From the NCBI GenBank assembly GCA_963749445.1, contig CAVVMJ010000010.1, positions 43,913-107,912 of the forward strand: a stretch of DNA of 64,000 nt. The letters are read 5' to 3'. Position numbers and translations under genes: made by a program. The stretch is from an uncultured bacterium. Lineage in GTDB: Bacteria > Patescibacteriota > Doudnabacteria > UBA920. The notes beneath the pieces are model-generated. The model saw only the letters and a list, made by a program, of their open reading frames with translations, was not told the origin of the DNA and ran no database searches. Shown piece by piece: positions 13,373 through 34,796 of this stretch (positions within the stretch are counted from its first letter, which is position 1; every line of letters begins with the position of its first letter).

Positions 13373-13407
13373 ATCAACTTTATTTAATAATATGCGTTGC
13401 CGCAAAC

Positions 13408-14605: not shown

Positions 14606-14648
14606 AAAAGCCTGTCTAATATCAATTCTGGCCAGAATTGATATTAGA

Positions 14649-15182: not shown

Positions 15183-15213
15183 TGTCTAATATAGTTTCCG
15201 GCCATAAATGATG

Positions 15214-16227: not shown

Positions 16228-16228
16228 T

Positions 16229-16762
16229 TTATAAATTCTTTAATAGCTTAAAATAATACAAAGCCACCATAACCCAACCGTCGTGAATTTTGCCGCTTTT
16301 AATCATTTTGTCAATTTCTCCCAAGGTAAAACCTTTCATATATATGTCGGCTTCTCCGGATTCCAACTCAGGTTCACCAAATTTTAGCTTTTCGGCAAGA
16401 TAAATTTCCGTCAATTGGTTGTTTGAGCCATTTGAAGGGTTAAATTCCCCCAAATGAACCCATTTGGCCGCGGTAATCCCCGTCTCTTCCTTTAGCTCTT
16501 TTTTAGCCTGCACCAGGAAATTTTTGTTTTCCGCTCCTCCGGCGGGAAACTCCCAACTGCGTTTTTGGACAGGATATCGAAATTGATTAACCAAATAAAA
16601 TTTCTTTCCGTCAAAAGGAACAATCAGGACGCTGGGTTTCTTTTTTAACCAAAAATAAACTCCGTGGGCGCCGTCGGGTTTAATCACTTTGTCTTCATAG
16701 ACTGCGAATTTATAGCATTCATAAACTTTTTTACTGCTGATTTTTTTCCAGGATTTTTTCAT
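16229..16762 (-). CDS. NUDIX hydrolase
   Basis: Nudix box GGAENKNFLVQAKKELKEETGI. Confidence 0.75.
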   Translation of the reverse strand: MKKSWKKISSKKVYECYKFAVYEDKVIKPDGAHGVYFWLKKKPSVLIVPFDGKKFYLVNQFRYPVQKRSWEFPAGGAENKNFLVQAKKELKEETGITAAKWVHLGEFNPSNGSNNQLTEIYLAEKLKFGEPELESGEADIYMKGFTLGEIDKMIKSGKIHDGWVMVALYYFKLLKNL

Positions 16763-17822
16763 GGCTGCTTTAGCTGCCCCGCGGTTAAAGTCAAAGTCAT
16801 CTGGCTTTTGCCGCGAATGATTTTAACACTGATGTTATCCCCCGGCTTGGCTCCGGCCAAGGCCGCTTCCAAAGAATTATTGTCGTTGATGTCGGTTTGC
16901 CCCCAGGTCTGGATTACGTCATTTATCATAAATCCCGCTTTTTGCGCCGGCTGCCCCGAAGTGATGCTGACGACTTTCGCACCAGCAGCCGAACCCAAAG
17001 CCTGGCCCTCAGCCGGGCTCACCATCTTGTAGGAAAACCAAATTCGGGGCGAATAACTTGCCCTTGGTTATTCAAATACAAATTGTCTAAATTCTTAATT
17101 ACGTCAATGGAAACAATGTGCCCCGCATCCCACAAACCCAAAACCGCGCCGTTGGTATCGGCAACCGCGGTTCCCGGGAGCAAAGTGTCGCGATCCTGTA
17201 TGGTAAAAGTCCGACTCGGCATATCGGCGTTTTTTTCGCTCCAGCCTCCTTGCGTCTGGCTAATAAAACTGGCCTCAAACACAGCGGAAAAATTAGTCAG
17301 CTGCGGCGTGGCCAAAATAACCCGTTGTCCCGCGCTTGCGTCTTTGGAGCTCGCAAAATCCGCCACCGGCAAATTCTGCAAATCGGCTTTCAAAATCACC
17401 AAATCCGTCGCGTTATCCGGGGTTAATTTTACCACCGGAGCCAGAGTGCCGTCATCTAATTTTATTTTCAGATTGGATAATTTTTGGCCATCCACAGCGG
17501 ATTTTACGGTGACAAACAGCCCGTCGGAAGTTAAATTCAAAGCTCCGCCCAAAACCGTCACCTGGCCGCCGTTGTCGGATACCAGCAAACTTAACTTCGG
17601 ACGGATGGCGGCCAAAGCTTGCTGGACGTCGCCGCTGTCGCTAACTCGGACTTCCTCGCGGGTATTGATAACTATCGGCGCCTGCGGACTGACCAGCTTA
17701 TAACGGCTCAACAGAGGCAAAGTGGAAACTTTAGCAGTTAGCCAGCGGCCGAATAAGATGCTAAATAACTGCGACAATATGATAGCGGCTATGAGTACAA
17801 AGAAAACTCGCCTTTTATTCAT
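16759..17822 (-). CDS. membrane-anchored HtrA-like protein (trypsin-fold region plus C-terminal PDZ), split by a frameshift near 17019-17025
   Basis: ORF 17019..17822 has an N-terminal TM and a protease-like region. ORF 16759..17025 is a PDZ domain. The canonical GNSGG serine motif is not evident. Confidence 0.45.
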
Positions 17823-17828
17823 AAAAAT

Positions 17829-18629
17829 CTAGGTTAAAATCTTCCACGGGGTGGCTAAAGCAACAATAGTAATCGCCAACGCGACCAAAACTAAGTGAAA
17901 TTGGATTTTTTTGACGGTTAAAGTCTGGAACAAATGGTAGTAGTTTAAAATCAGGCAAAAATAAAACAGGCAAAGCAGTATCAGTCCCTGGGCCGAATAA
18001 TGAAGCGGCAAAAAACTTTCCGCCCAAAACAGCTCGGCGGAAAACAGGCTCAATGCCAGGGCCGCCACCCACTTGGTCTTATCCGGCTGGGGGACAAATT
18101 CGTAAAACGCGCGGCTAAGAAGCAAGGTCACAAAAAATACGCCGAGCAAATAGAGCGGCTGCAGGGAAAACTGCCAGTTGAGCAAATGCCAGCGGCCCAG
18201 ATGCACGGCAATTTGGTGAAAATCCGGAAAAAATTGTCCGGCGGCCGAAAGGCCCAGCAGCAAACCGAAAGCAATCAGCAGCGTTTCATTAATCACCATA
18301 TTTTCCGTGAAATTGCCCAAATTGACTTCCGCCAAAAAAATCACCACAGCCGCGCTGGCCAAAAACCAACCGCGGAACACGGGCGTGGGCAGCATAAAAA
18401 AAATCGCGAAGCCGCTGAAAAACTGCAGCACTGACCGCGTTAAAATCCAGGGGTTGTATTTTTGGACGGACAATAAATATTTTTTGTTATAGTAAGCCAC
18501 CGCGCCGCAAAACAACAAAAAAACCGGCAGCATGATGCGGAACACAGGCTGCGGATTTGACAAGCGCCAAAGGACTGCGGCATACAGCACCCCAATGACG
18601 GCGGAAATTATTTTATGTTTTTGGAACAT
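17829..18629 (-). CDS. polytopic membrane protein (hypothetical)
   Basis: 266-aa ORF with 7-8 predicted TM segments. Confidence 0.4.
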   Translation of the reverse strand: MFQKHKIISAVIGVLYAAVLWRLSNPQPVFRIMLPVFLLFCGAVAYYNKKYLLSVQKYNPWILTRSVLQFFSGFAIFFMLPTPVFRGWFLASAAVVIFLAEVNLGNFTENMVINETLLIAFGLLLGLSAAGQFFPDFHQIAVHLGRWHLLNWQFSLQPLYLLGVFFVTLLLSRAFYEFVPQPDKTKWVAALALSLFSAELFWAESFLPLHYSAQGLILLCLFYFCLILNYYHLFQTLTVKKIQFHLVLVALAITIVALATPWKILT

Positions 18630-19482
18630 TGCGGTAAAGATATATCAAAACGCAAAAACTTATTGCGGCCAGGAGCAAACTGACCAGAGCGTTAAGTCGG
18701 AAAGCCCCAATAAAAGTACTGTCAATTCTTAAAAACTCCAAACAAAATCTCAGTAAATTATACAATAAAAAATAAGAAAAAGCAACGAGCCCCGCTTTTT
18801 GTTTCTTGCCGATTTTGAGCAAAAAAATCAGGATAAAAGTATTGCCCACGACTTCATACAAAAACCAAGGGTGAAAAAAATTATAATTGACAAAAATTTC
18901 CGGACGGAATTGCAATGGCACAAACATTTTCCAGGGCAGGTTCGTTGGATAACCGAATGCTTCGTAATTAAACAGGTTGCCAAAACGGCCGATAATTTGG
19001 CCTAGCAAAACACACGGCGCGAGCCAGTCTAAAAGAGGGCTAAGGGCTAAGGGTTTAGGGCTAAGTCTCCGATAAATTTCTAATATCAAAATGCCGCCGA
19101 GGACAGCGCCGTAAATGGACAAGCCGCCGTTCCAGACTTTAAAAATATCGATCGGATATAGCCGGTAATACCCAATGGACGAAAGCACGTGATATAATCT
19201 GGCCCCGATGAAACCGCCAATAATCACCCAAAATAAAATATCCTCGGCTTGCTTTGGGGTTATCCCAAAAGTCGATGATCTTTTCATCGCGAGATAAAAG
19301 CCGGCCGCCGCCGCAGCTGCCATTATAAGCCCGTAATAATGAATGGTAACCAACCCGATACGGAAGTATTGGGGAAGAATTATACGACCAGAAAAGACGC
19401 GTTGCAAAAAGAAAACCAAGGCTATCAAACTCGCGCCAACTAGCCTAATAATGACCTTCCTCGATTTTGAGGCAAGAAGCAT
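18613..19482 (-). CDS. lgt: prolipoprotein diacylglyceryl transferase
   Basis: Lgt signature IGRFGNLFNYEAFG and multi-TM topology. Carries an in-frame short repeat insertion encoding LSPKPLALSP. Confidence 0.8.
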   Translation of the reverse strand: MLLASKSRKVIIRLVGASLIALVFFLQRVFSGRIILPQYFRIGLVTIHYYGLIMAAAAAAGFYLAMKRSSTFGITPKQAEDILFWVIIGGFIGARLYHVLSSIGYYRLYPIDIFKVWNGGLSIYGAVLGGILILEIYRRLSPKPLALSPLLDWLAPCVLLGQIIGRFGNLFNYEAFGYPTNLPWKMFVPLQFRPEIFVNYNFFHPWFLYEVVGNTFILIFLLKIGKKQKAGLVAFSYFLLYNLLRFCLEFLRIDSTFIGAFRLNALVSLLLAAISFCVLIYLYRNVPKT

Positions 19483-19528
19483 GAAGTAAGAGTCAAGGAA
19501 CTTAATTCTTAACTCTTGATTCTTGCCT

Positions 19529-20110
19529 CTAGAACAATGCCGCCTGATGCTTCACTCCCACCCGCGGCGCGGCGTCCGCGATTTTCAGCGGTATTTCTTT
19601 GGTCTTAAAAAAATCTTTATACAGCAGCTTTTGGTTTTTTAACGCGTAATCGTAAATTTGTTTGGTGATTTTTACGTCGTCGGTGCAATATTTTTTAAGC
19701 AAATCCATTCTTCCGTTTTTGTAATACAAAAGCGCCTCCAGCCCGCTGCCGGACTTGCCGCTGCCCAGCGTACCCTGGGCCACCAGTTCCAATTTTATCC
19801 GGTGGTGCAAAACCTTTTCAATTTCCGCGAGCAAATCCAAATACGGAACCTCGTCTATATTAAAATTTAAATAAGGTTTTAAAACCTCAAAATCAAAATC
19901 TTTTATGTTATAACCGATAATCTGGTCTGCGGTCTGTAAAATCGGCGCCAGCCTATTAAGCTCGTGCTCTTCGTAAGCTGTATATTTGTCGGTGCTGTAA
20001 TCGTAAATTACGCAAACACTCACCTTTAACAAATGGTTCTTCCCCCGCCCCCCTACATCCTGGAAAGATTTCTGGGTTTCAAGATCTAATACAATCTTTT
20101 TTAAAAACAT
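19529..20110 (-). CDS. RNase H-like 3'-5' exonuclease (YprB/PolB-exo-like)
   Basis: DEDD-type motifs LDLETQ, YNIKDFDFEVL and CTDDVKITKQIY. Confidence 0.5.
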   Translation of the reverse strand: MFLKKIVLDLETQKSFQDVGGRGKNHLLKVSVCVIYDYSTDKYTAYEEHELNRLAPILQTADQIIGYNIKDFDFEVLKPYLNFNIDEVPYLDLLAEIEKVLHHRIKLELVAQGTLGSGKSGSGLEALLYYKNGRMDLLKKYCTDDVKITKQIYDYALKNQKLLYKDFFKTKEIPLKIADAAPRVGVKHQAALF

Positions 20111-20951
20111 TTTGGTTTTATTGATCAGTTATATATAAGCAATGTAGCGTGCCGATTCATCGGCGTCCGAAAACCGCCCATAAATGGGCACGCTACACTT
20201 ATTCATTATATAAAACATTTGTCAAAAAGACAAAAAAAGCTCTCTGCCAGATCAGAGAGCAACGGTACCCGGAAGCCCGCGTGCGGCCCCGGGATTTTTC
20301 TACGATACGCAACCGTTCAAAAACAAACGGCTGGTTCCCGCGGCAGATGCTGGCAACCGCGAAAAATTCATAATTGCGGCCCGGAGCTTTCGCCCCGGAC
20401 TGTGCCCCATGTGGGGCTCCTTCTCCTTGGTATTGTATACCCGCTTGCCAGTTCAGGCGGGGTGATGCAAAAGGGCAGAAGCCCCAACTACGCCCAAAAT
20501 ATCACCGATATTACTGGTTGGGCCTGCCTGATCAAACGCTCCCGGAGCTAAATGGAGTTAAAAAATATCAGGGCAGAAGCGCCTGCAGTCCTCGGCCGTC
20601 AACCGAGTCCTTTGGCGATTTTTTGCCCCTATTTCGTCCAAACCATCAGGGGCCAATGGATTGCACGTTGGGCTATCGGCTCAGCAGGTTGACGGACATC
20701 GTCGCACTCATAGACGAAACTCCCTTCTTCATGTGTTCCAATTGTTTTTCCGCAGGCCTTTTTCCTGCGGCGATTGGTTTAACCAGATATTACTCTCTCT
20801 CTCTGTTTTTGTCAACATTTTTGCCATTTTTACAATTTTGTTGTAAAATACTTTTATCATTGATTTTTAACAGCCCTACCGACTGTTTATCGGACGAGGG
20901 CTATCCTCAGAGGCCGATAAATCGGCAAACTACACTGGGGTGAAAGCAAAT

Positions 20952-22815
20952 ATGCAACGAACACTATCTTTGGAAACGCCCGAAAAAATCGGGCAAGACG
21001 TCTCGGTTGAGGGCTGGGTAAATTCCCGGCGCGACCACGGGGGCGTTATTTTTATTGATTTGCGCGACCACACTGGTTTGGTCCAGCTCGCGATTCATCC
21101 TGATGAAAAAGAGGCTTTCGCGGCCGCTGATAAATGCCGCGACGAGTTTGTAATAAAAGCCGAGGGCAAAGTTATTGAACGGTCGCCCGAAACCAAAAAC
21201 GAAAACCTGCCCACAGGCGGCGTGGAAATTTTAACTTCATCTATCGTCATCCTTAATACTTCCAAACCCCTGCCGTTTCAGGTGGCGCACGGCCATGGTG
21301 AAGAACAGGAAATTAACGAGGATTTGCGATTAAAATATCGGTTCCTTGATCTGCGCCGCGAAAAAATGCAAGCAATGCTCGTCAAACGGCACAAAATGAT
21401 TAAGTTTATCCGCGACTGGATGGACGAACATCAATTTATAGAAATCACCACGCCGATTCTGACTTCCAGCAGCCCCGAAGGCGCGCGCGACTTTTTAGTG
21501 CCGTCGCGCCTGCACCCCGGAAAATTTTACGCTCTGCCGCAATCGCCTCAGCAATACAAACAGCTGCTGATGACCGGCGGCGTGCCGCGCTATTTCCAAA
21601 TCGCGCCATGTATGCGAGACGAAGACCCGCGTGCGGACAGAAGCCCGGGCGAACACTACCAGCTGGACTTGGAAATCGGTTTTGCCCAGGAACCGGAAGA
21701 TGTGTTTTCGGTGATGGAGCCGTTTTTTGTGGAGTTGGCCGAAAAATTCGCGGACAAAAAAATCTGGAAAAAACCTTTCCCGCGCATTTCCTACGAAGAC
21801 GCCATGAATTTATACGGCTCGGATAAACCGGATTTGCGTTTTGGAATGGCAATGGTGGATTTAACGGAAGATTTACGCAATACAAAATTTAGCGTTTTCG
21901 GCAACGCCATAAAAAACGGCGGGGTGGTCAAGGCCATTTGTTGCGACGACGGCGCAAAATTAACCCGCTCGCAAATTGACGAACTTACGGAAATGGTCAA
22001 AAAAGAAGGCGCCGGCGGGCTGGCGTATATTGTTGTTGATAGCAAATCCGATAGTGGCGTAGAGGCACGCCGCGGCGTGCCTGATCAAGACGGCATGCCT
22101 CGGCATGCCGCTACAGGGACAGAAAACCTCCGCTCCCCCATCCTTAAATTTTTATCATCTGACGAAATTTCCGCCATCCTCACCAAAACCAAGGCCGAGC
22201 CCGGTGACATTATTTTCTTTGGCGCGGACCAGTTGCCGATTGTGAACAAAGTCCTCGGGAAGCTCCGCAGTAAACTTGGCGACGTCTTCGGGTTAAAAGA
22301 TCGAAAACCTAATAGCCTGGGCCTGGATTTACAACTTCCCGATGTATGAATACAATGAGCAGGAAAAGCGCCTGGACTTCGGCCACAATCCGTTTTCCAT
22401 GCCCAAAGGCGGGCTGGAAGCATTAAACACGCAAGATCCGCTCAAAATCATTGCCCAGCAATATGACATTGTGGCCAACGGCCTGGAAATTTGCTCCGGC
22501 GCCATCCGCAATTACCATCCCGAAACTATGTATAAGGCTTTTGAAATTGTTGGTTACGACAAAAAAACTGTGGACGAAAAATTCGGCGGCATGATCCGCG
22601 CCTTTGAATTTGGCGCGCCGCCGCACGGCGGCATGGCCCCGGGCATTGATAGGATAATGATGCTTTTGGAAAATGAACCCAACATCCGCGAAATTATCGC
22701 CTTCCCCAAAAACGGCTCAGCCGAAGACGTCATGATGGGCGCCCCCGGCACCGTGGAAGAAAAACAGTTAAAAGAATTGCATATAAAACTGGACCTTCCA
22801 AAACCTAAAAAATAG
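20952..22815 (+). CDS. aspS: aspartyl-tRNA synthetase, with an apparent frameshift in an A4 run near 22295-22298
   Basis: N-terminal anticodon-binding OB fold, class II motifs and motif 3 [19 protein letters not shown]. ORFs 20940..22349 and 22342..22815 are in different frames. The upstream frame reads ...GLKD and the downstream frame ...[16 protein letters not shown], matching the E. coli sequence around WAPLWVIDFPMFE. Confidence 0.85.
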
Positions 22816-22875
22816 CAGTCCATCCCGGAATTTTTTGCGCTGATGGCTATCACAGGCCGCAAAAAATATCCGGGA
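22816..22875 (+). repeat. hairpin repeat family F2, copy 1
   Basis: CATCCCGGAATTTTTTGCG - 20-nt loop - CGCAAAAAATATCCGGGATCC. Near-identical copies at 43998-44057 and, inverted, at 55140-55213. Confidence 0.8.
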
Positions 22876-22971
22876 TCCAGAATCGAGCAAAAATCTGGAT
22901 TCCCGCTTCCGTGGGAATGGCAAAGAGTAATTCACCGATTTATCGGTCATAAAAAATTAAATGCAAAAAAA

Positions 22972-23340
22972 ATGAACAATATAACTCTAAATTTAATCAT
23001 AATATTGGTACCCTTGCTCATCCTTTTGGTACTTTATTATGCTTTTAAGCGTACACAAGGACATTCAGTCCAAGAAAGTTCTTCCAGAACTTTTAACAAA
23101 TTGCCTCACACTTTTAAGGCTGGCGTTTCATTAGGGCTAAAAATTACCATTTTGGTTTTTGTTATAATTGAAATTGTTATGGTAATATCAACCATCGTTA
23201 GCCAGGCAAAAGATCCGGCTCCAATAATAATGGGGCCAATATTTACTTTTTTAATCGTAAGTCCGTTCATACTGGTCTTTATTCTTGGCATAGGAATGAT
23301 AGGTCATTTTATAGGAAAATTTAATCGAAAAAATAATTAA
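22972..23340 (+). CDS. small membrane protein (hypothetical)
   Basis: Start MNNITLNLIIILVPLLILLVLYY; three to four TM segments. Confidence 0.4.
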   Translation: MNNITLNLIIILVPLLILLVLYYAFKRTQGHSVQESSSRTFNKLPHTFKAGVSLGLKITILVFVIIEIVMVISTIVSQAKDPAPIIMGPIFTFLIVSPFILVFILGIGMIGHFIGKFNRKNN

Positions 23341-23352
23341 TTTTTCTTACAA

Positions 23353-23868
23353 ATGAAAAAAACAATCAAATCAAAAAAATCAATCAATCAAAAAATCAAA
23401 AAACTTGAAACCAAAGTTACTAAACTTCTTGATAAGGCAAAAATCAAATACAAAACTCTGGAGCACAAAGTTGTTTTTACTGCTCACGATGTCGGCGCGA
23501 CAACCAAAAAGAAACTTAGCGAAATCGCCAAGGTGGTTTTGGTAAAGGCGGACAAAAATTTTGTGCTCATTGTTTTGCCCGCAGGAAAATATTTGGACTT
23601 TTCCGGCATTAAAAAAGCTCTAAAGGCGAAAAAAGTTTCAATGGCTTCCGAAAAAGACATTACCAAATACTTAAAAACCAAAGTCGGTCTTCTCCACCCC
23701 TTCGGCTCCGAATATAATCTAAAAACTCTGCTCGATAAAGGAATGTCCAGATCCAAAAAAATGATTGCTTCAGCCGGCACGTTTACGGACAGCGTGGAAG
23801 TCGCATTAAAGGATTTTGAAAAACTGGTAAAGCCGGTAAAAGGCGCGTTCTCAAAATCAAAAAAATAA
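23353..23868 (+). CDS. YbaK/ProX-type aminoacyl-tRNA deacylase domain protein with Lys-rich N-terminus
   Basis: Core VVFTAHDVGATTKKKLSEIAKVVLVKADKNFVLIVLPAGKYLDFSGIKKALKAKKVSMASEKDITKYLKTKVGLLHPFG resembles YbaK/EbsC. Confidence 0.5.
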   Translation: MKKTIKSKKSINQKIKKLETKVTKLLDKAKIKYKTLEHKVVFTAHDVGATTKKKLSEIAKVVLVKADKNFVLIVLPAGKYLDFSGIKKALKAKKVSMASEKDITKYLKTKVGLLHPFGSEYNLKTLLDKGMSRSKKMIASAGTFTDSVEVALKDFEKLVKPVKGAFSKSKK

Positions 23869-23871
23869 GCA

Positions 23872-24000
23872 TTACGGCCTTCTCCCCTTTTGAGGGGAGA
23901 TGTCGCGAATGCAGCTGAGCGACAGAGAGGTTGCAATCGCACAAGGATACAACCTCTCCCCTGCCCCTCTCCTCAAAAGGAGAGGGGGCTCCGCGAAATC
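23872..24000. repeat. variant copy of palindromic repeat family F1 in the ybaK-scpA intergenic region
   Basis: CTCCCCTTTTGAGGGGAG hairpin plus ACAACCTCTCCCCTGCCCCTCTCCTCAAAAGGAGAGGGGGCTCCGCG. Shares modules with the copy at 62129-62175. Confidence 0.7.
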
Positions 24001-24003
24001 ACC

Positions 24004-24735
24004 ATGCTCCAAACCAAACTCCGACAATTTGAAGGGCCGCTGGATCTGCTGCTGTCCCTGATTGAACAGCGGCAGCTGAACATTACCGAAATCGCGCTGG
24101 CCGAGGTGACCGAACAATTTTTGCAGCACATTAAACAGCTGGAAAAAATTGACCCGACCGTGCTGGCCGATTATCTGGCCATTGCCGCCAAGCTTTTGGT
24201 CATTAAATCCAAGGCCATTTTGCCGACTTTGGAAATTGAGGAAGAGGAAGAGGACGCCGGCTTTGATTTGGAAAGCCGATTGCTGCTTTACAAACAGTTT
24301 AAAGAAGCCGCCAAGTACTTAAAGCATCTGGATAACAAACGAAAACAAAGCTTCACCCGCTCTTTACAATTTGAACAGCGGATGAATTTTTATCCCGACC
24401 CCAATGTCAGCCCGGAGACTTTGCATAACTCCATCCTCAGGGTGCTGAACGCCTTAAAAGAACTGGATGCCCTGCCCAAAGCCCAAATCAAAGAAGCCAT
24501 TTCCATCCAGGAAAAAATTAACCAGTTGCGCAATTTCCTGGAATCGCAGGTGGAAACCAAATTAAGCGATCTGTTAAAATCCGCCAAAAACAAGTCGGAA
24601 GTGATAATTACTTTTTTGGCGCTGCTGGAACTCATTAAGCAAAAAATCCTCACCGTCAACCAGGAAGCGATGTTCGCAGATATTGCCATAAAAAAATACC
24701 ATCCCGACACAAGCGGAATGCCATCGGAAAATTAA
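24004..24735 (+). CDS. scpA: segregation and condensation protein A
   Basis: MLQTKLRQFEGPLDLLLSLIEQRQLNITEIALAEVTEQFL, the ScpA N-terminal signature. Confidence 0.8.
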   Translation: MLQTKLRQFEGPLDLLLSLIEQRQLNITEIALAEVTEQFLQHIKQLEKIDPTVLADYLAIAAKLLVIKSKAILPTLEIEEEEEDAGFDLESRLLLYKQFKEAAKYLKHLDNKRKQSFTRSLQFEQRMNFYPDPNVSPETLHNSILRVLNALKELDALPKAQIKEAISIQEKINQLRNFLESQVETKLSDLLKSAKNKSEVIITFLALLELIKQKILTVNQEAMFADIAIKKYHPDTSGMPSEN

Positions 24736-24736
24736 G

Positions 24737-24842
24737 TTGATGGACATCTTCCTGCGGCTAAATAAATCAGCCGATGTTTATTGATTAAAGGATATTTTAT
24801 CGCTAACAGCACCACAACCGCGAAGATGCCCATCAAGCTCAA
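24737..24842. repeat. MITE-like repeat family F3, copy 1
   Basis: Terminal inverted repeats TTGATGG(G/A)CATCTTC ... GAAGATGCCCATCAA around a roughly 75-nt core. Other copies at 25712-25815 and 27868-27972. Confidence 0.8.
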
Positions 24843-24857
24843 AAGTAAAATCGCTAT

Positions 24858-25094
24858 ATGAACCGCACCCTAATCGGCCTTTTATTTCTGCTGGCCGGAG
24901 TCGCTTACGGCTCCATGGCCATTGATTCTTTTTACAACCACACTTTGGGCTGGTTGGTGGCAAACGACTGGATTAGCCAACAAACGATAAAAAAAGTCCC
25001 CAAAACCGCGCTCGGCCGCAAACCAACAATTTTGCTATACAGCTTATCTTTAATTATTATCGGGATATTTATTCTATGGAACAGGAACAACTAG
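24858..25094 (+). CDS. small membrane protein (hypothetical)
   Basis: 78-aa ORF with two TM segments; overlaps the scpB start by 19 nt. Confidence 0.3.
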   Translation: MNRTLIGLLFLLAGVAYGSMAIDSFYNHTLGWLVANDWISQQTIKKVPKTALGRKPTILLYSLSLIIIGIFILWNRNN

Positions 25095-25699
25095 CCAACG
25101 TTTTAGAAAGCCTGCTGTTTATTTCCCACAAGCCGCAAAGGGCGAAAGATTTGGCGAAATTTTTGGAAGTTGATGAGCCGGCGGTACAAGCGGCTTTGGA
25201 CAAACTGGCGCGCGAAAAAAAAGACCGCGGCGTGGTAATTTTGGAAAACAACGGGGAGTACCAAATGGCCACCGCGCCTTTAAATTCCGCGCAGGTCAAA
25301 AACTTTTTGAATCTGGAGCTGCGGGAAAAACTCACGGAAGCCACCGTGGAAGTTTTGGCCATTGTCGCCTACCGCCAGCCGATTTCCAAAGCCGAACTTG
25401 AGGCCATCCGCGGCGTCAATTCCCAGTACAGCCTGCGCGCGCTGTTGATGCGCGGGCTGGTGGAAAAAATTCCCAATCCCCGCGACGCCCGAAGTTTCCT
25501 ATACCAAACCACCACGGAATTTCTCCAGCATTTAGGGATGCTTTCTGTTAAAGATTTGCCGGAATTTGACAAACTAGTTAGCCAAATCAAACTGCCCGAA
25601 ACCCCGGCAATTCAAGAAGCTTTGCGGGAGCCGGGTACTCCCGAAGAAACGGCGCCGCCCGGCAATATCAACCAACCAGATGAAAAACCTCCCGGCTAA
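25076..25699 (+). CDS. scpB: segregation and condensation protein B
   Basis: LESLLFISHKPQRAKDLAKFLEV...; tandem winged-helix ScpB architecture. Confidence 0.8.
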   Translation: MEQEQLANVLESLLFISHKPQRAKDLAKFLEVDEPAVQAALDKLAREKKDRGVVILENNGEYQMATAPLNSAQVKNFLNLELREKLTEATVEVLAIVAYRQPISKAELEAIRGVNSQYSLRALLMRGLVEKIPNPRDARSFLYQTTTEFLQHLGMLSVKDLPEFDKLVSQIKLPETPAIQEALREPGTPEETAPPGNINQPDEKPPG

Positions 25700-25711
25700 A
25701 ACGGGAGGTTT

Positions 25712-25815
25712 TGTTGATGGGCATCTTCTCGCTAACAATGCCGCTTGCGATAGTTATCAGGCTGTCGATAAACAATCGCCGACATTAAAACAATCACAAA
25801 GATGCCCATCAAGCA
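25712..25815. repeat. MITE-like repeat family F3, copy 2
   Basis: TTGATGGGCATCTTCTCGCTAACA ... AAAGATGCCCATCAA. Confidence 0.8.
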
Positions 25816-26012
25816 ACGGCCGGAAACGCTTATCTAGGCAACTGGTTATAAGAAGCCTGCGGACTGGACGGCACTTCCTGTTTGAGCTGAACTTTTTGGC
25901 AAGCGGCCGCCAAAAGCGACAGTAAAACCAAAACCAAAATCAATTTCCTTTTACCCATATTATAAATCCCTTGTCTAACATCATTTCCGGCCGGAAATGA
26001 TGTTAGAGTAAA

Positions 26013-26774
26013 TTAAATCAATAGCGCCGCGCCCAAAGCTCCAGCGTTCTTTAATTGCGAAACCAAAATTTCAGTCTCGGCATTTTTGTCGAAAAGATAC
26101 TGACGCATCTCTAACTTCGCCGCGGGCAAATACTTTTTGCTTTGGTCGCTGCCGAATCCGCCCCCGATAATGACGGCATCGGCCGCGAAAATATTTATAA
26201 AAGACGCCAGTGCTTTGCCGACCACTCTGCCTACCTGCTTATAATCTTTCTTGTCCCGAAACCGCTTGAAAGCCGCTTCAAAAAACTCCTCGCCCAAAAC
26301 TATGTGCCCAAGCTCGGCGCCAAAATTGTTTTCGCCCCGATACAGCCGCCTGTTAATCACAATCCCGCCGCCGATGCCGGTACCCAAAGTCAAAGCCAAA
26401 AAATTTTTGAATTTTCTCCCCTGCCCCAACATCAGTTCCGCCCGGGCAAAACAGTTGGCGTCATTGTCAACCCTGACCCTTTTTATGCCGTTTAATTTAA
26501 GCAGCTTGGCTAAATTTAAATCACGGATAAATTTTATATTCGGGGAATGCCTGACCATGCCATTTTTCTGATCTACCAATCCGGCCATGCCCGCGCCGAG
26601 GCCGGAAATTTTTCGCTTTGCTGACAAAAAATCCGCGAGCTTGATGATGTTCCGCTCAAACTCAAATAAATTTTTCGGGGTCACAACTGTCAGCTCGTCA
26701 ATGATTTTTTTACCGTCATAAACAATGCCGGTGATTTTAGTGCCGCCGATGTCAATTCCTATAATATTTTTCAT
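26013..26774 (-). CDS. ROK/BadF-type sugar kinase (ASKHA ATPase)
   Basis: MKNIIGIDIGGTKITGIV phosphate-1 motif; DNDANC and GTGIGGGIV motifs; no ROK zinc motif. Confidence 0.6.
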   Translation of the reverse strand: MKNIIGIDIGGTKITGIVYDGKKIIDELTVVTPKNLFEFERNIIKLADFLSAKRKISGLGAGMAGLVDQKNGMVRHSPNIKFIRDLNLAKLLKLNGIKRVRVDNDANCFARAELMLGQGRKFKNFLALTLGTGIGGGIVINRRLYRGENNFGAELGHIVLGEEFFEAAFKRFRDKKDYKQVGRVVGKALASFINIFAADAVIIGGGFGSDQSKKYLPAAKLEMRQYLFDKNAETEILVSQLKNAGALGAALLI

Positions 26775-26866
26775 ACAATAGTATTTCTATTTTATTTCCA
26801 CTTATTTCTATCGTATTCCATCACAAAAAGAAATACAGTTGAAATATAGTCGATATAAAATTGAAA

Positions 26867-27862
26867 TTAATTGTTAAACAACTGTTTTGCTTTTTCCCAA
26901 AACTCCGGATGCCCGCGCTGCTTCATCCAGTACCACCACTCCACTCCCCACAAATACTGAGGTGAAAAGCCGGTGCCCCGCGCGTAACTGACAATGGTAT
27001 CAAAATGGTCCAGACTCATGGTTTTAAACTGCTGGTCAATGGGCGTATTAGGGATGCCGGCTGTGGTCCACGGCTCGGCCTCCAGTTCTATTATAGCAAT
27101 TTGTTTGCCAGGATGCAGCATTTCCACCAAACCGGCCTTAAACCTATACACAATGGGCAAAAAATAAAAGTTCGTCCAATAGCGTTTTAAGACATCGGAA
27201 AACACGTAGCGGTAAAAGGTGGTGCCAAAAATGTCGCCCCGCGCCGAGGCTGAAAACCACCAGTTCAGCTCGCCGCTGTCGGTAACAATGACGGGACGGG
27301 ACGGGTCCAGCTTTTTCACCAAGGCGATTTCCTCATCGAGCAGCGCGATATTCAAAGGCGGGCAAATCCCGAAAGTGGACAAAAACGGCTCATTCTCCAC
27401 CTGCCATGCAATGAGATTGGAATTATTTTGATAACGCCTCACCACGGTTTCCACGTAAGAAAGCTGCGCGGCTTCAAGGCCACTTTGGGAAAGATTGTTA
27501 ATCCATGACGGATCATGGCATTCCGGCCAGCGCGGCAGCCGGCGGCCCACGACCAGGACAATCTTGGCATTATGGCTAGAGGCCTGATCCATTTGAAAAT
27601 CCAAATCGTCAAAATTATACTGATCCTTCTGCGGTTCAACAGCATCCCAGTAAGCTGACAGCCGCAAATATTTGGGTTTGAGATCGTTTAATATATCCTG
27701 ATAAGCCTGCTTCCAATCCAGTCCCAGGCTTTGCGCGTAGGGAGCGCTAAAAGTGACTCCGTATTCAATTTTTTGGCTCTTGGGCGCGAACAAAGACACA
27801 AACCACACCAATACAAGCGCGATGATGATTAGGGATATTAGCCATTTGAAAAATCTTTTCAT
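26867..27862 (-). CDS. secreted glycoside hydrolase, TIM-barrel (GH5/GH113-like)
   Basis: N-terminal TM/signal segment; WQVENEP catalytic acid/base motif; second Glu in IELEAEPW. Confidence 0.5.
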   Translation of the reverse strand: MKRFFKWLISLIIIALVLVWFVSLFAPKSQKIEYGVTFSAPYAQSLGLDWKQAYQDILNDLKPKYLRLSAYWDAVEPQKDQYNFDDLDFQMDQASSHNAKIVLVVGRRLPRWPECHDPSWINNLSQSGLEAAQLSYVETVVRRYQNNSNLIAWQVENEPFLSTFGICPPLNIALLDEEIALVKKLDPSRPVIVTDSGELNWWFSASARGDIFGTTFYRYVFSDVLKRYWTNFYFLPIVYRFKAGLVEMLHPGKQIAIIELEAEPWTTAGIPNTPIDQQFKTMSLDHFDTIVSYARGTGFSPQYLWGVEWWYWMKQRGHPEFWEKAKQLFNN

Positions 27863-27867
27863 ATATA

Positions 27868-27972
27868 CGCTCGATGGGCACTTTCTTGCTGACACTCCCG
27901 CTGTCTATAATTATCCCCCAACTGATAAACACCGGCCAGCGGCTAAATTAACAGGAAGGTGCCCATCAACTC
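27868..27972. repeat. MITE-like repeat family F3, copy 3 (more diverged)
   Basis: GATGGGCACTTTCTTGCTGACA ... GGAAGGTGCCCATCAA. Confidence 0.7.
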
Positions 27973-27974
27973 CT

Positions 27975-28864
27975 TTATTGGTTCCCCAAAAACAAAACCA
28001 CGGTGCCTAAAAAAATCAAGGCAATTGCGGCGAGCTTTAATTTAACGGCGTGACGGTCCGTGTCTTCATCCAAAATATGCCGGAATTTGTAGCTTAAAAT
28101 TAAAGCGAAAATAAATAAAAAAGCGTAGCGGAAGCCTGACAATCCGTCCACTATGGGAACTTTGCCACGCGCCAAAAAATAGCTCAAAAAAATAAAATTC
28201 AATCCGCCGAGCGCCTGTTTAAAGACAAACAAAACGCCGGTATGGGCTTTTTTTCAACGTGTTCGGTAACCAGCGCGGCGCGGCGGAATTTTGGAATAAC
28301 CAATAAAATTATCAGGACGCCGGCCGCGCCCAAGCGGTTCCACATTAAATTATTTAAGCTTGACCCAACCTGCGCCCCGTACTGCCACAAAAAATTATAA
28401 GCGCTGTATAAAAACGCGGAAAGCAGCGCCAGGCCGAGAATCTTTTGGTAATCTTTACCGGAATGATAGCCAATCAATAGCGCCCCCGGTATTAGCAGCG
28501 CCATGGCCCCCAACTCCGTGGTTGTCAATGCGCTGCGCCCCGTGGCAAAAGATAACAGCACGTCAAATACCGGTACCAAACCAAAAATCAAAGGCACCAC
28601 GCGCGACACCTCGCCGTGAGACAAAACTTTGTAATACACGTACATCACCAGCCCAAAAAACGCGCCCGACAAAAGGTTAAAAAAAATAAATTTACCCGGG
28701 AGGGGATTATAAACCCACGGCCAGATTGCCAGCAAAAGCGCGCCCGTAACCACGGTATAAAACGCGTACGACAGCGGCTGGATTTTGCGCTTGCTGATTA
28801 AAAATTTGTCGAACAAATCGACAACGGCAAAGCTGGCATAGAGGAGGATAACTTGTGCGAGCAT
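27975..28864 (-). CDS. EamA/DMT-family transporter, apparently split by a frameshift in a T7 run near 28249-28256
   Basis: ORFs 28199..28864 and 27975..28232 are both multi-TM and adjacent in different frames. Confidence 0.5.
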
Positions 28865-28984
28865 AAAGGTTATTGGTTATAAGATATAGCGACCGGTCTG
28901 GTCTTAGGTATGTAGTTTTAAGTTACAAATACCTTAAAACCTTTTACTACGCTGGCCGCCACAACTTATAACATACGCCTAACT

Positions 28985-30210
28985 TTAAATCTCCAAATAA
29001 TTATTCTTGCATACTTCCGCAAACTTGACGGCGCTAAAGCGCACCCTGCGACGCAGCAAATCTTCGCGGTCAATTTCCACCAGCCCGAACCGCGGCCAAA
29101 AACCTTCTTCCCATTCAAAATTATCGGTAAGCGACCAGTACAGGTAGCCGCGCACGTCCGCATTTTTTTGGATGGCGCGGTGCACATAGAACAAATGGTC
29201 CTTAATGAATTTTTCCCGCTTTTCGTCTTTGCGATCCGCGATGCCGTTTTCCAAAATATAAATCGGCTTGCCGTAGCCTTTAATCCCAAGCAGTACGCGC
29301 TCAATGCCTTCGGGATGTATGCCCCAGCCGCGGTCGGTTTCGTTATGCTGGCTGTGGCTGTGCTTGCGCAGGCCGAACAGGCCGAGGTGGTGGTGGAAAT
29401 AATAATTCACGCCAATGTAATCGCACGTCTTGATGGTGCGGCGTAAAATATAATCGTTAACTACATAATCCGCCAAGCCCGCCGCCAAGCCGCCCAAAAA
29501 TCCGTAAGGCTGCAAGTCAGACAAATTAAACGCCAAACTTACCGGCTGACGCAGATGCTGCTGGATGTATTCGGCCAATAAATTGTGGGACCTGATTAAA
29601 TTATCCACCACTCTCCAAGCCGTGCGGAAACTTTTAACCTGCGGCGGATGCACGCCCAGCCAATAACTTTGTCCAGCGTACAGGCCAGGCTCGTTAATTG
29701 TCACCCAAAAATCCACGTACTGGCTCAACCGCCTGGCGGTATGCCGCGCATAGTGCAAAAAATCGCTGATGTTTTCTTTTTTGGTAAATCCCCCTTTTTC
29801 ATAAACCACACCGGGCTGGTATAATGGTGCAAAGTCAAAAATACTTTCAGCCCGTGATATTTGGCGGACTGCAAAATTTTTTCGTAATGGTCCAAAGCCT
29901 TTTCGTCAAACACGCCTTCTTTGGGCTCTATGCGCGACCATTCCACGCCAAACCGCGTGGCGTTTTGGTTAAGATGCTCAGCCAAAGCGAAATCTTCATC
30001 GTACCGGTTATAAAAATCGCAGGCAATACCACTCTGGAATTCGGCCGGATTTTTACCCGCTTTCCTGAGCGCGTCTTCCCGCCGCGGCGACCGTTCCCAA
30101 ACCCACCAATCCGCGTTGCTGTTACCGCCCTCGGTCTGGTAAGCGCCGCTGGCCGCCCCCCACAAAAAATCTTTGGGAAAGATAAATTTTTGTATCTGTT
30201 TCATTGCCAA
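28985..30210 (-). CDS. GH1 beta-glucosidase, split by a frameshift near 29790-29800 (C5/T5 runs)
   Basis: N-terminal FLWGAASGAYQTEGG. Acid/base TINEP and nucleophile YILENG in the downstream ORF. The junction lies between NEP and YILENG, inside the catalytic barrel. Confidence 0.75.
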
Positions 30211-30403
30211 AATTATTTTTCGACCTCGTGGAGAAGATAATTTTGTCCCCGCGCAATCGAAAAGTTTAGTGCTTTCATTATGCCACAGTTGATAAAAAAA
30301 TCAAAATCTGGTAAGATTGGTAGGACTTATAGGACAAATAAGGCTGATAAGCCACATGTGCTTGCAATCTTAAATCCAAAATCATAAATCTAAAATTATT
30401 CAT

Positions 30404-30478
30404 GGCGCTATCGTCTAATGGTCAGGACGAATGGTTCTCAGCCATTAAATCAGGGTTCGATTCCCTGTAGCGCTACCA
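30404..30478 (+). tRNA. tRNA-Glu (anticodon CTC) with encoded CCA
   Basis: Cloverleaf: acceptor GGCGCTA/TAGCGCT, D-stem GTCT/GGAC, anticodon stem AATGG/CCATT with loop TTCTCAG, T-arm CAGGG-TTCGATT-CCCTG. Confidence 0.85.
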
Positions 30479-30620
30479 AGTTCGCAATTTTGGAAACAAC
30501 TGACCAATATCAATCGTATTATGCTGGCAATTACTAACAAAGGCTATGAACATCAAGGGCAAAGTCGTAATCATCACCAGCGCATCGCAAGGGATATGTC
30601 CAAGTTGGCCAATATAAAAC

Positions 30621-31663
30621 TGGTTTAATGGTAAATTCTAGTGCTTGAAACCGGCTAAAACTTCCTCGATTAACCGCCAGCGCCTGTCGCGTTTCAGACC
30701 GCTATGGATGCCAATCAGTTGTTTAAGATATTTAAAACTGCCGTCTAAAGAATTCGTAGTATTGGGAATATTTAAACCGGTATATCGTTGGTAAGTAAAC
30801 AGGTAAGGCGCGTTGGTTTTCAAACTCCGATAAGCAGACCTAATTCGCTTGTGGGTGTAAAACCACTTTTTAGGATTAAAGGGATTAACGGTTCGTTCTT
30901 TTAAAAAGTCTCCCCATTTTTCATGCCAGGCATCCAGCAACAACAGCAACATGTTTTCAGTTAATTCAGTTAAAGCCAAGGCAATCATCCGCAGTTCTTT
31001 TCCCGCTTCCAGCTTCGGCCGTTTGGTCAAATACCTGGTAACGATGGCCATTTGGTGGAACTGGCAGACTTGTACCGGAATGTCGGAAAACACTTCTCTG
31101 ACGCCCTTTTTACCGTCTAAGACCACTGCTTCAAAGGTGTAGCCCAATTCTTCCAGCAGTTGTCTGGCTTCCCGATACACATCAGCCGTTTCAGTTTTAA
31201 CCTCCGTCCAGTACAGGTTCTGTTTAAGGTCAAAGGATCTAAAAACCAACACCCCGTAACCCCGACCCCAGAATGTGCAATCAGCGATGGCAACTACAGG
31301 TTGCGGATAAAGGCGAAATGACTTTGTAGGAGCTTTATCCAGCTGCTGCCGAATCCACTTTTCACTCCGCTGATATTTTTTAACCAGCTGCTTAACTGTT
31401 TGTTTGCCCCAGATGTATTGCCGCCAGAGGGCGCGTTGAAGTTTCTGTTTACGCCGTTTATTCTCAAAATTCTTTCCGCAATTCTTGCACTGGTAACGCT
31501 GGAGCCCTAACTGTTTCCCTTTCTTAATAATTGCCGAAGAACGGCATCTTGGGCACTTTTTTTACAAGCCATACATAATCAAAGTTAATTATTTATCTTA
31601 AGTATGGCACAAACGCCGAAATCTAAGCACTAATATTTACCATTAAGCCAAATGTGTTAACAT
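30621..31663 (-). mobile_element. IS1595-family (ISXO2-like) insertion sequence next to tRNA-Glu
   Basis: Imperfect terminal inverted repeats TTAATGGTAAATTCTAGTGCTT (30626-30647) and, on the other strand, TTAATGGTAAATATTAGTGCTT (31636-31657). One transposase gene inside. Confidence 0.7.
30638..31572 (-). CDS. IS1595-family transposase (N-terminal zinc ribbon plus DDE domain), frameshifted in a homopolymer at 31557-31563
   Basis: With one extra A the N-terminus reads MACKKKCPRCRSSAIIKKGKQLGLQRYQCKNCGKNF (the Zn_Tnp_IS1595 pattern) and continues into the 204-aa DDE ORF. As sequenced there is no ATG in that frame. Confidence 0.7.
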
Positions 31664-32084
31664 ACTGCACACCTACCCGCCAGGCGGGCGGATCGCTGGT
31701 TTTCTATAAACCGGACAAAGGCTATTTAAGCAAACTTTTAAGGACAAAACGAAGAGAAACCGCCTTTTAAGTTGCCATGAATAGCAGGCCTGCCTGCCGA
31801 AAAAACCGGAGGACAAGTTTCGTCTTGCCGCGTTATCGGCTGCCGTATCGCCTTCAGGTCCGCGGCGAAACAGCACGCTGAGCGCGACATTGCCATGAGG
31901 GCAGCTGATTGGGCTTTTCATCTGCGGCCCGCAGTTGCCCTCGTCGGCAAAATTTCAATTTGAGATCGTTGATCAGCAGAAACCTATCCGGTGAACATCA
32001 TTGGGGATACCCGGAACAGGATGCCGATTTTGGGCTTTGCCCAAACAAGCAGAACACGACTGTTTGGTTTCAACGATTCTCCGG

Positions 32085-32128
32085 CCCGGCAATTGGTTTC
32101 AAGCACCAATTGCCGGGTGCGTTTTTTT
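32085..32128 (+). terminator. rho-independent terminator on the plus strand with no upstream plus-strand CDS
   Basis: CCCGGCAATTGG - 9-nt loop - CCAATTGCCGGG followed by TTTTTTT. Confidence 0.6.
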
Positions 32129-32368
32129 ATACCCGCGGCCAAAGCACACCCCTGAATTCGTTGTTCACGATTAGCGGAACGCCGCGCAAACTTTGCACGC
32201 GCGCGGAAATTTCACTCACCGGGCATCGGTGGGCGCGGTTTGATCCGCAGGAGCAATGCGCGCATAAGCCGGAAAGTTGGCTCACAATGTTCAATTTTTG
32301 CTTTTCAAGTTCGCTCATAAATTAGTGAGTAGTTAGTAGCGGGTAGTCAGTAGCCAAACAGAATGTGC

Positions 32369-32722
32369 TCAATTTTTGTTTTGAATAAGCTTGTTAAGCA
32401 TTTTCATAACCTCCTCAAGCAAGCTGTCAACTTTTGAAAAATCCAAGCCTTTGCCGAAAGGCAATCTTTTTGCTATTTCTATTTGGGTTTCCAATTCGGC
32501 TCCGGAAGCAAAAGCAATCGACAAAAAATGATAAAACTCATTATCCCCGAATCTACGCCTGCCCTCGGCAATATTTGACGGAATAGAAACTGAGCAACGG
32601 CGAGACTGCGAAACTAAACCATACAACTCATTCGGTGGATATCTTTCCGTAAGCTTATATACTTCAACGACTAAATCCATTGACTTGCGCCAAACAATTA
32701 AATTTTTGTAATCCGCGTACAT
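32369..32722 (-). CDS. four-helix-bundle protein (TIGR02436; 23S rRNA intervening-sequence protein family)
   Basis: SIPSNIAEGRRRF...EFYHFLSIAFASGAELETQIEIAKRL signature. Confidence 0.75.
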   Translation of the reverse strand: MYADYKNLIVWRKSMDLVVEVYKLTERYPPNELYGLVSQSRRCSVSIPSNIAEGRRRFGDNEFYHFLSIAFASGAELETQIEIAKRLPFGKGLDFSKVDSLLEEVMKMLNKLIQNKN

Positions 32723-32765
32723 ACTTCGTCATACTGGCTACTTACTACTAACTACCATCTACTTA

Positions 32766-33380
32766 CTACTCAAGGTTTCTAATGACTCCAACCACCTTCC
32801 CCTGCACGCTCCATTCTTCCTTGGGATAAATGTTCTTATAGTCCGGATTCTCGGCTTTTAAGTAGGCGCGGTTTTTTACGTAGACCAGCCGTTTAACCGT
32901 GGCTTCGTCGTGCAGCAGCGCCACCACGATTTCGTTATTTTTGGCTTCCTTGGTCGGCCGCACGATTACCAAATCGCCCTCAAAAATTCCGGCGTTTATC
33001 ATGCTGCCTCCGCGCACCTTAAGCAAGAACACATCGCGCCGGCCTTTAATTAAGCTGGAAGGCAAATTAATCCATTCTTCAATTTGCTCTTCGGCCAAAG
33101 TCGGCACGCCGGCCTGGATGGCGCCCAGTAAAGGCACTCTGATTAGCCCTTTTTGCAAACTTTCGCCCAAAGTCTTTAGCACTTCAATGCCGCGCGCCTT
33201 GCCGGAAATCCTGATAAAACCTTCGCTTTCCAAAGCGTTCAGCAATTTAGCCACCCCGTTTTTGGATTTGACCTTAAGGTAAGTGGCCATTTCCGAAATG
33301 GACGGCGGCAAATTGTATTCCCGCACCTGCTTAATGATGAATTGGAGCAGTTCTTTTTGGCGCTGTGTGATTTTGTCCAT
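32766..33380 (-). CDS. lexA: LexA repressor
   Basis: N-terminal winged HTH; cleavage site region AIQAG (Ala-Gly); S24 catalytic Ser in GGSMINAGI and Lys in TVKRL. Confidence 0.85.
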   Translation of the reverse strand: MDKITQRQKELLQFIIKQVREYNLPPSISEMATYLKVKSKNGVAKLLNALESEGFIRISGKARGIEVLKTLGESLQKGLIRVPLLGAIQAGVPTLAEEQIEEWINLPSSLIKGRRDVFLLKVRGGSMINAGIFEGDLVIVRPTKEAKNNEIVVALLHDEATVKRLVYVKNRAYLKAENPDYKNIYPKEEWSVQGKVVGVIRNLE

Positions 33381-33951: not shown

Positions 33952-34560
33952 TTAATGCTTACCTTTACCCAGCGTGTCGCAAACCACGATGTGCGGGTAA
34001 TCAAAAATGTCCTTGATAAACTTGTCAAAAGTGTCGCGCCGGAGTTCAAACTCCGGCTGGGTCATTAAGCTGTAGTTGATGTCCTGGCTCATCATTTTTT
34101 CCACGGCTTTCAAAAAATCCGCCAGTTTCCTTAAGTTGATCCGGCCGACCAAAAGCAAATCAACCGGTAAGTTCGGCTGGCCGCAGAACAGGCCGCTTAA
34201 AAAGGCCGCCTTAATCTCCCCTAAATTCTTCAGCGCGGCAAACAGCTCGTCTTTGTAGGCCGGAACTCGGCCCAGACGGCGCTTGAGGTCAGGCAGAAGC
34301 GGATGACGAAGATTAACCAAAAAATATTTCTTGCCGCGCTTGCTGAAACTTTTAAGCAGGCCGGCCTCTGCCAGCTTATTTAAACTCACAGCGGCCTGCG
34401 CGTGGCTGAATCCCAGACGCCGGGCGATTTCGTGAATGGAAAAAGCCCTCGGCGGGGCGGCCAGAAAAAAACTCAAAGCCGGGCTTTCGGTTTTGGAATC
34501 AATGATGGTTTCCAGCATATGGTTGGAATTATAACACAGGCGCGGGGTATTTTGAAACAA
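33952..34560 (-). CDS. winged-HTH transcriptional regulator-like protein with uncharacterised C-terminal domain
   Basis: HEIARRLGFSHAQAAVSLNKLAEAGLL HTH-like segment. Confidence 0.35.
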   Translation of the reverse strand: MFQNTPRLCYNSNHMLETIIDSKTESPALSFFLAAPPRAFSIHEIARRLGFSHAQAAVSLNKLAEAGLLKSFSKRGKKYFLVNLRHPLLPDLKRRLGRVPAYKDELFAALKNLGEIKAAFLSGLFCGQPNLPVDLLLVGRINLRKLADFLKAVEKMMSQDINYSLMTQPEFELRRDTFDKFIKDIFDYPHIVVCDTLGKGKH

Positions 34561-34796
34561 ATTGATGCGAATCTTCGCAATTGTTTTATCGCCAGCCGAT
34601 ATTTATATATCGGGGGTTGATTTTCGGCGACCTTACTATACACAAGAAGATTCCCATCAAACCCTTAAAATATTTTGAATTCTTTTAAATTTGTTGTATA
34701 ATATAGCAGTAATCTTCACCCGCCAAAATTTGTTTCGGATTTGGAAATAAAGCTTAGGTCAATTAGGTCAAATTTCAATCAAATCTAAACTATTGT

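Follow-up and report, generated by a model that had tools for sequence, protein, structure and literature searches.

The stretch of DNA analysed here (the window) comprises 64,000 nucleotides of contig CAVVMJ010000010.1 (positions 43,913 to 107,912, forward strand) of assembly GCA_963749445.1, from an uncultured member of the Doudnabacteria (Patescibacteriota). Between scpA and an ORF of 676 aa it carries four copies of a short palindromic repeat, and a fifth copy is found in the same genome:

24737..24836: copy c1, 100 bp; arms 24737-24751 TTGATGGACATCTTC and 24822-24836 GAAGATGCCCATCAA; interior like that of subfamily B
25714..25812: copy c2, 99 bp; arms 25714-25728 TTGATGGGCATCTTC and 25798-25812 AAAGATGCCCATCAA; interior like that of subfamily A
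27871..27969: copy c3, 99 bp; arms 27871-27885 TCGATGGGCACTTTC and 27955-27969 GAAGGTGCCCATCAA; CAC/GTG change in both arms
34562..34660: copy c4, 99 bp; arms 34562-34576 TTGATGCGAATCTTC and 34646-34660 GAAGATTCCCATCAA; C-to-A change in both arms (GAATC/GATTC)
L158 4720-4816: fifth copy, about 4 kb beyond the 5' end of the window

The consensus ends of the family are TTGATGGGCATCTTC ... GAAGATGCCCATCAA, i.e. inverted arms of 15 bp. When the window was searched for TTGATGGGCATCTTC with up to three mismatches, 10 matches were obtained against 1.98 expected, a number reached in none of 100 shuffles. Eight of these ten form four inverted pairs (24737/24836, 25714/25812, 27871/27969 and 34562/34660), and the distance from arm start to arm start is 84-85 bp in all four. 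An earlier note on this DNA had described three copies of a 105-bp element with 15-bp terminal inverted repeats. Its three copies exist and its arm length stands, but the paired-arm search brings the count to four, the copy at 34562-34660 having been overlooked, and the boundaries had to be revised to a length of about 99 bp. The common start and end given there likewise hold only in part: inverted arms are shared, but c3 starts with the degenerate TCGATGGGCACTTTC (three mismatches) and ends with GAAGGTGCCCATCAA, and c2 ends with AAAGATGCCCATCAA. The shared internal segment is present as TCGCTAACA in c1 (24800-24808) and in c2 (25729-25737). Tandem duplication of a single locus does not explain the copies, and both c1 and c2 recur with 100% identity in an independent Logan assembly (L057), which speaks against an assembly artefact. 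Five copies lie within about 70 kb of the source genome.

The copies are intergenic, as had been reported for those after scpA, after scpB and before the GH gene, and this is also true of c4. Copy c1 begins 1 nt past the scpA stop (24735) and ends 21 nt ahead of a 78-aa membrane ORF (start 24858). Copy c2 lies in a convergent spacer, directly after a terminator-like hairpin (25686-25713) that overlaps the scpB stop. Copy c3 is located 5 nt past the stop of an EamA fragment (27975) and 8 nt ahead of the GH start codon (27862), and c4 is found upstream of a MarR-like gene (33952-34560, minus strand), in the divergent spacer that separates it from the 676-aa ORF (34930-36960, plus strand). Two other features of this part of the window were noted. 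A perfect palindrome of 17+17 nt without spacer (25974-26007, TCTAACATCATTTCCGG/CCGGAAATGATGTTAGA) lies between the start of a small lipoprotein ORF and the ROK stop, and a LexA repressor gene (TIGR00498, E 1e-57) adjoins a gene for a four-helix-bundle protein (TIGR02436) at 32369-33380, both about 1.2-2.2 kb from c4.

Scans of public data yielded about 45 further copies in Patescibacteria (CPR), namely in Saccharibacteria, Doudna-, Davies- and Nomurabacteria MAGs, as well as in peat metagenomes and in a few non-CPR contigs. A genome scan with a degenerate paired-arm pattern, one genome per species, returned 18 loci. In eight of these the inverted repeats reach past the pattern, a trait that chance matches do not show; they belong to Saccharibacteria (L003, L008, L009 and L016), Doudnabacteria (L010), Daviesbacteria (L014), Nomurabacteria (L015) and a Saprospiraceae MAG (L011). 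A metagenome scan in which gaps of 56-86 nt were allowed returned 38 loci. About 30 of these copies are AT-rich and CPR-like, with 95-100 bp from TGATG to CATCA (97-102 bp in full, with one outlier of 107/109 bp); the scan also gave a GC-rich group of 84 nt and two more palindromes rich in GC. Copy lengths cluster at 95-102 bp despite a search window of 82-112 bp, which indicates that length is constrained independently of the search. The arms hardly vary between copies, and conservation begins abruptly at the first T of TTGATGG, the flanks having background composition. The interiors are variable and include two subfamilies, B (12 copies) and A (9 copies), with c1 being B-like and c2 and the copy in the related locus L039 being A-like. 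Many metagenome contigs end at the element, as is typical of repeats. GC-rich non-CPR contigs that carry the arm are L019, L044, L045, L050 and L011. At two of these loci, L011 1747-1873 (the Saprospiraceae MAG) and L045 824-952 (a GC-rich metagenome contig), the arm motif lies inside a longer perfect palindrome, the inverted repeat extending at least 12 nt past TTGATG/CATCAA, whereas CPR copies have sharp ends. A search of a library of papers revealed no description of such a repeat in CPR bacteria, and queries with sequence strings matched only primers.

Among the 35 copies that lie outside called ORFs and have genes called on both sides, 28 are found between co-directional genes, 6 between convergent genes and a single one (c4) between divergent genes. 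The gap to the flanking genes is mostly 0-40 nt, and the element usually constitutes the entire spacer, so that it must be co-transcribed with its neighbours. Co-transcription, and with it a hairpin in the mRNA, is also inferred from the almost exclusive location between co-directional or convergent genes. The orientation of the subfamilies relative to gene direction is not fixed. Hairpins followed by T runs, similar to intrinsic terminators, occur just upstream of two of the five copies of the source genome (25686-25713, and L158 4682-4709). Since c2 and the L158 copy are thus preceded by ordinary terminators, the element is not needed as a terminator; it may, however, land preferentially beside hairpins.

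Comparison with related loci revealed differences in the location of copies. Homologues of the GH protein for which organism names are available are annotated as Patescibacteria or Ca. Doudnabacteria. Locus L039 is syntenic to window positions 20772-33239, with a nucleotide identity of 70-78%. None of c1, c2 and c3 is present there, scpA overlapping the small ORF at the c1 site, and L039 carries a copy in its GH-ROK spacer, where the window has none. Locus L031, syntenic to 11736-20632, has two copies at places where the window spacers are 6 nt long or free of the element. Locus L059 (GCA_028870105.1) lacks all of the copies; its spacers measure 0-40 nt, and scpA and the small ORF again overlap. 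The closest relative, L058 (86% amino-acid identity for GH), has copies at the sites of c1, c2 and c3. Its copy E1, the ortholog of c1, is 85% identical with the same flanks; E2, the ortholog of c2, features TTGCTGG/CCAGCAA in its two arms where c2 has the consensus; and E3, at the c3 site, has its right junction in common with c3. An extra copy in L058 lies between GH1 and EamA, and a decayed copy may be present in the corresponding window spacer. At L058 4670-4684, 5 nt from the left end of E2, there is a solitary and degenerate arm (TTGATGGATATCCGC), which could be the remnant of a second element or of a nested or tandem insertion. The simplest account is that the ancestor shared by the window genome and L058 acquired c1-c3 once its lineage had separated from L039 and L059. 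Copy positions that differ between syntenic relatives imply gain or loss, and insertion polymorphism is present between relatives at species or genus distance. Reconstruction of empty sites from L039, L059 and L031 did not fix the insertion point, the spacers being too diverged at 70-78% nucleotide identity, and mobility is inferred from these between-species differences rather than from pairs of near-identical filled and empty sites.

Conserved termini and differing cores, as described in the earlier note, hold throughout, and the constraint goes beyond that claim: length is restricted, the arms co-vary, and in orthologous copies their conservation far exceeds the neutral rate. Pairing was scored at the 22 outermost positions of 46 distinct copies: 84.4% of cells are paired, compared to 77.7% in shuffles (0 of 500 shuffles as high), and 13 pairs have changed on both sides. 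Pairing falls to 30-45% when the partner is slid by 1-3 columns. Compensated changes in the 15-bp arm are found at positions 1, 4, 7, 9, 11 and 15. The search pattern would accept non-complementary combinations at positions 7, 9 and 11, so the covariation there does not stem from the search. The three orthologous copies of the window and L058 agree at 80 of 90 arm positions (89%), whereas four-fold degenerate sites are 58% identical between the two (P about 1e-10), with the qualification that ascertainment may contribute to arm identity, sites being recognised by their arms; the interiors of the same copies agree at 146 of 208 positions. The ends of resident copies are thus maintained, possibly through selection (for pairing or for recognition) or through concerted evolution. 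At the orthologous site of E2 and c2, the two arms have either undergone a double change, one side compensating the other, or been converted.

Every copy folds with the arms as its closing stem. Beyond the arms, pairing is less general: compared with sequences whose interior alone was shuffled, neither subfamily B (z about +0.5) nor the window copies (z -0.7 to -1.9) fold better than chance, and only subfamily A, the Saccharibacteria copies and the GC-rich copies show a significantly extended stem. A rod-like conserved structure running through the interior was rejected on these grounds for subfamily B and the window copies. The minus strand folds better for c1, c2 and c4, even for c1 in its plus-strand operon, and this tracks the skew of the plus strand (negative for GC, positive for AT) rather than the direction of transcription. 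A strand-specific G.U signal was likewise discarded as evidence for an RNA, as it follows GC/AT skew in the window and is inconsistent within subfamily B. At gathering score, Rfam detected only 3 tRNAs in the window and left the elements unmatched; at E<=10, the elements matched only generic plant miRNA hairpin models (E 2-7).

The earlier note had read the copies as non-autonomous MITE-like elements mobilised in trans (see PMC11602168 for the general definition). The repeat is indeed dispersed, non-coding and multi-copy, with sharp ends and differing sites in relatives, but the target-site duplication looked for beside each copy is lacking: none of 45 copies is flanked by direct repeats of 3 nt or more, and one by a repeat of 2 nt. 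Flank identity was 0.16-0.29 for k=2-9 across the 45 copies, i.e. at background level. The single-nucleotide G...G flanking the window copies was rejected as a duplication, since it is found in 17 of 45 copies and represents a weak end preference. Searches of the window and of about 380 kb of related loci (about 450 kb examined) turned up neither a full-length IS with these ends nor a long-spaced arm pair, and no solo arm other than the degenerate one in L058. In 98 viral loci fetched around single-arm matches, all arms were solitary and no paired element was found. The only transposase of the window belongs to an IS256-family element of about 1 kb (30621-31650), with 26-bp inverted repeats (TGGTTTAATGGTAAAT..., 88% complementarity) and a 204-aa ORF (30638-31252, minus strand) matching NCBIfam IS256_Zn_var with E 1.4e-67. 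This element was dismissed as a parent, its inverted repeats being unrelated to the arms. It adjoins a tRNA gene (30404-30475) in a region that differs from the syntenic L039. A tblastn search with IS608 TnpA and E. coli RAYT as queries, which is a weak test, detected no Y1 transposase or RAYT gene (best E 1.7) in about 357 kb of window and related loci.

Several known systems bear comparison with this element. REPINs are doublets of REP sequences that form hairpins and are mobilised by RAYT Y1 transposases (Bertels & Rainey 2011, PMC3116915). Their description includes inverted ends that do not vary, a spacer that is less conserved but important for its length and its ability to form a hairpin, and compensatory changes (PMC3116915). 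The CPR element resembles them in its size of about 100 bp, its conserved inverted ends (about 16 nt in REPINs), its variable spacer of fixed length, its extragenic location, its clustering and its many copies per genome (PMC3116915). Unlike REP units, the arm TTGATGGGCATCTTC has no stem-loop of its own, only GATG/CATC around a 2-nt centre, and it contains no GTAG or GTGG tetranucleotide where REP has a conserved GT[AG]G. REP and REPIN elements are not known to leave a target duplication, and the 45 copies of the CPR element conform to this. REP sequences are normally lineage-specific, whereas here one arm sequence is common to several CPR classes and to some non-CPR contigs.

Bacterial MITEs such as Correia/NEMIS in Neisseria, RUP in Streptococcus pneumoniae and ERIC/IRU in enterobacteria are also non-coding, 100-150 bp long, bounded by terminal inverted repeats and located between genes; they are co-transcribed as long hairpins, and several have no known parent IS. 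Those among them whose mechanism is known leave target duplications (for instance TA for Correia and RUP), and copies of a family are alike over their whole length. The CPR element differs from Correia, RUP and ERIC in its lack of duplication and in that only ends and length are conserved across subfamilies. Integron attC sites are imperfect palindromes of about 60-140 bp located after genes, with conserved ends and a variable middle, which recombine as single-stranded hairpins without duplication. Their ends are RYYYAAC...GTTRRRY and their orientation is uniform within a cassette array near intI, as opposed to TTGATGG...CCATCAA and mixed orientation in the CPR element. An attC identity was rejected because of these mismatched ends, the housekeeping genes between copies (scpA, scpB, ROK, GH) and the lack of an integrase or array. 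The sequence CATGCCCATCAAC, which we take to be the terminal repeat of IS231 (IS4 family), shares the 11-mer ATGCCCATCAA with the arm, in opposite orientation relative to the element tip. IS231 makes duplications of 10-12 bp. This resemblance is probably a coincidence; a primer carrying the CATGCCCATCAAC string also appears in PMC3208593. Comparison by eye with attC, parS, dif, CIRCE, the LexA box and the Fur box gave no match.

The explanation we prefer, with a probability of roughly 0.55, is that these copies belong to a family of non-autonomous palindromic repeats of about 98-99 bp, similar to REPINs or MITEs and widespread in Patescibacteria, which moves without target duplication. The functional parts would then be the pair of inverted 15-bp termini at a spacing of about 84-85 bp, with an interior of about 70 nt free to vary. 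A trans-acting enzyme would recognise the two ends, or the 15-bp stem that they form in single-stranded DNA, and would insert the element without a staggered cut, as might be expected of an HUH/Y1-type, serine or DEDD-type enzyme rather than of a DDE transposase. Co-transcribed copies would add a strong hairpin to the mRNA, which the host may tolerate or may use for processing or stability.

Strong conservation of the arms would nevertheless not be expected of purely selfish, dead insertions. Distant CPR classes and GC-rich contigs from outside the CPR have this arm in common, in contrast to the normally lineage-specific REP and REPIN sequences, and this could point to a conserved host factor. 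An arm shared across classes leaves room for horizontal spread as well as for a conserved factor that recognises it. It is tempting to speculate, although we regard this as doubtful on balance, that the elements represent an undescribed class of palindromic repeats present across several CPR classes and in a few other bacteria, whose ends are kept under selection in resident copies and are recognised by a conserved protein, for instance a transposase (HUH or other) that has been domesticated, or a nucleic-acid-binding factor of the host.

The element could alternatively be a cis-acting RNA of the host, the 15-bp stem serving within polycistronic mRNA as a processing site (e.g. for RNase III), as a stabiliser or as a breaker of translational coupling. 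Stems closed by the arms in every copy, covariation, conservation of orthologous arms above the neutral rate and the location of nearly all copies between co-directional or convergent genes, a few nucleotides from stop or start codons, are all in keeping with such a role. Several observations nonetheless make it unlikely: no Rfam family is matched even at E<=10, subfamily orientation is not tied to gene direction, the interior of subfamily B and of the window copies does no better than shuffled sequence, the better-folding minus strand follows skew and not transcription, the same operons exist in relatives without any copy, and c2 and the L158 copy follow normal intrinsic terminators. Less likely still is a function in duplex DNA, with inverted 15-bp sites spaced about 84-85 bp (about 8 helical turns) allowing a DNA-binding or nucleoid protein to loop or wrap the spacer. 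Constant spacing with unrelated interiors, the nearly palindromic arm core GATGGGCATC, the recurrence of the same arm across phyla and the constraint on arms in place would fit this proposal. Compensated changes in both arms (c3, c4, L035, L050, L044, L011 and E2 of L058), however, better suit pairing or concerted evolution, only one of 35 classified copies occupies a divergent, promoter-bearing spacer, presence at orthologous genes is not conserved, and contig breaks at the element indicate many copies per genome.

A classical MITE, derived from a DDE insertion sequence by internal deletion and relying on the cut-and-paste transposase of that parent, would account for the terminal inverted repeats, small size, multiple intergenic copies and positions differing between relatives. 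We consider it improbable given 45 copies without target duplication, about 450 kb examined without solo arms or long-spaced pairs, and a window IS256-family element with unrelated ends; the maintained, co-varying arms are better accommodated by a REPIN-like or host-used element than by decaying MITE fossils. A very poor candidate is a small protein or type I toxin, for which the ATG within the arm (ATGGGCATCTTC = MGIF...) would start a short hydrophobic peptide and 5'-3' pairing would hide the start codon. ORFs of 23-36 aa do start in the arms of c1-c3, but L008 has a stop codon directly behind MGIF on either strand. Members of one subfamily differ in frame and in where the stop falls (9 to >35 codons), a ribosome-binding site is not consistently present, and an ATG is present on both strands simply because the arms are inverted. 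As neither reading frame nor stop position is conserved across copies, this candidate was rejected.

Genomes of CPR bacteria, about 1 Mb in size and tightly packed, are considered poor in repeats. The 99-bp element takes up entire intergenic spacers within operons, and its ends are identical across CPR classes. If these ends are the substrate of a dedicated enzyme, they offer a handle on a new mobilising or hairpin-binding protein in uncultured bacteria, and a case in which the persistence of selfish or domesticated repeats in reduced genomes can be examined. If the more speculative proposal of a selectively maintained, undescribed class were true, a long-term association similar to that of REPINs and RAYTs would exist in ultra-small, streamlined genomes, where persistent repeats are unexpected. 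If it is merely a dead repeat family, the element is an annotation detail. At the practical level, it breaks metagenome assemblies and could mark these lineages.

Several genes of the window are shorter than their counterparts or are split. The AspRS gene (20940-22815) is divided into 469+157 aa, compared to 607-641 aa in L058, L059 and L039; GH1 (28985-30210) into 161+274 aa, compared to 404-406 aa in relatives; and the EamA transporter (27975-28864) into 221+85 aa, compared to 295-311 aa in relatives. A gene of the PDZ region (16763-17822) encodes 267 aa, compared to 361 aa in L031. All four cases are frameshifts, due to indel errors in the assembly or to genuine pseudogene formation. The window also holds another repeat family, unrelated to the first, which consists of GC-rich modules with short hairpins (e.g. 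CCTCCCCTCC...GGAGGGG and TACTCCTCCTT...AAGGAGGAG), 70-93% identical between copies and also matching the relatives L039, L052 and L053. The modules are located as follows:

about 37600-37790, 38097-38251, 49540-49720, 57766-57930, 62489-62661 and 63396-63560: GC-rich hairpin modules
22819-22907, 43996-44083 and 55155-55217: also GC-rich hairpin modules

Finally, tandem repeats are found at 3520-5977 inside an ORF of 1631 aa (1747-6642, minus strand), with units of about 295 nt that are 72-79% identical and a 226-nt pair that is 92% identical.
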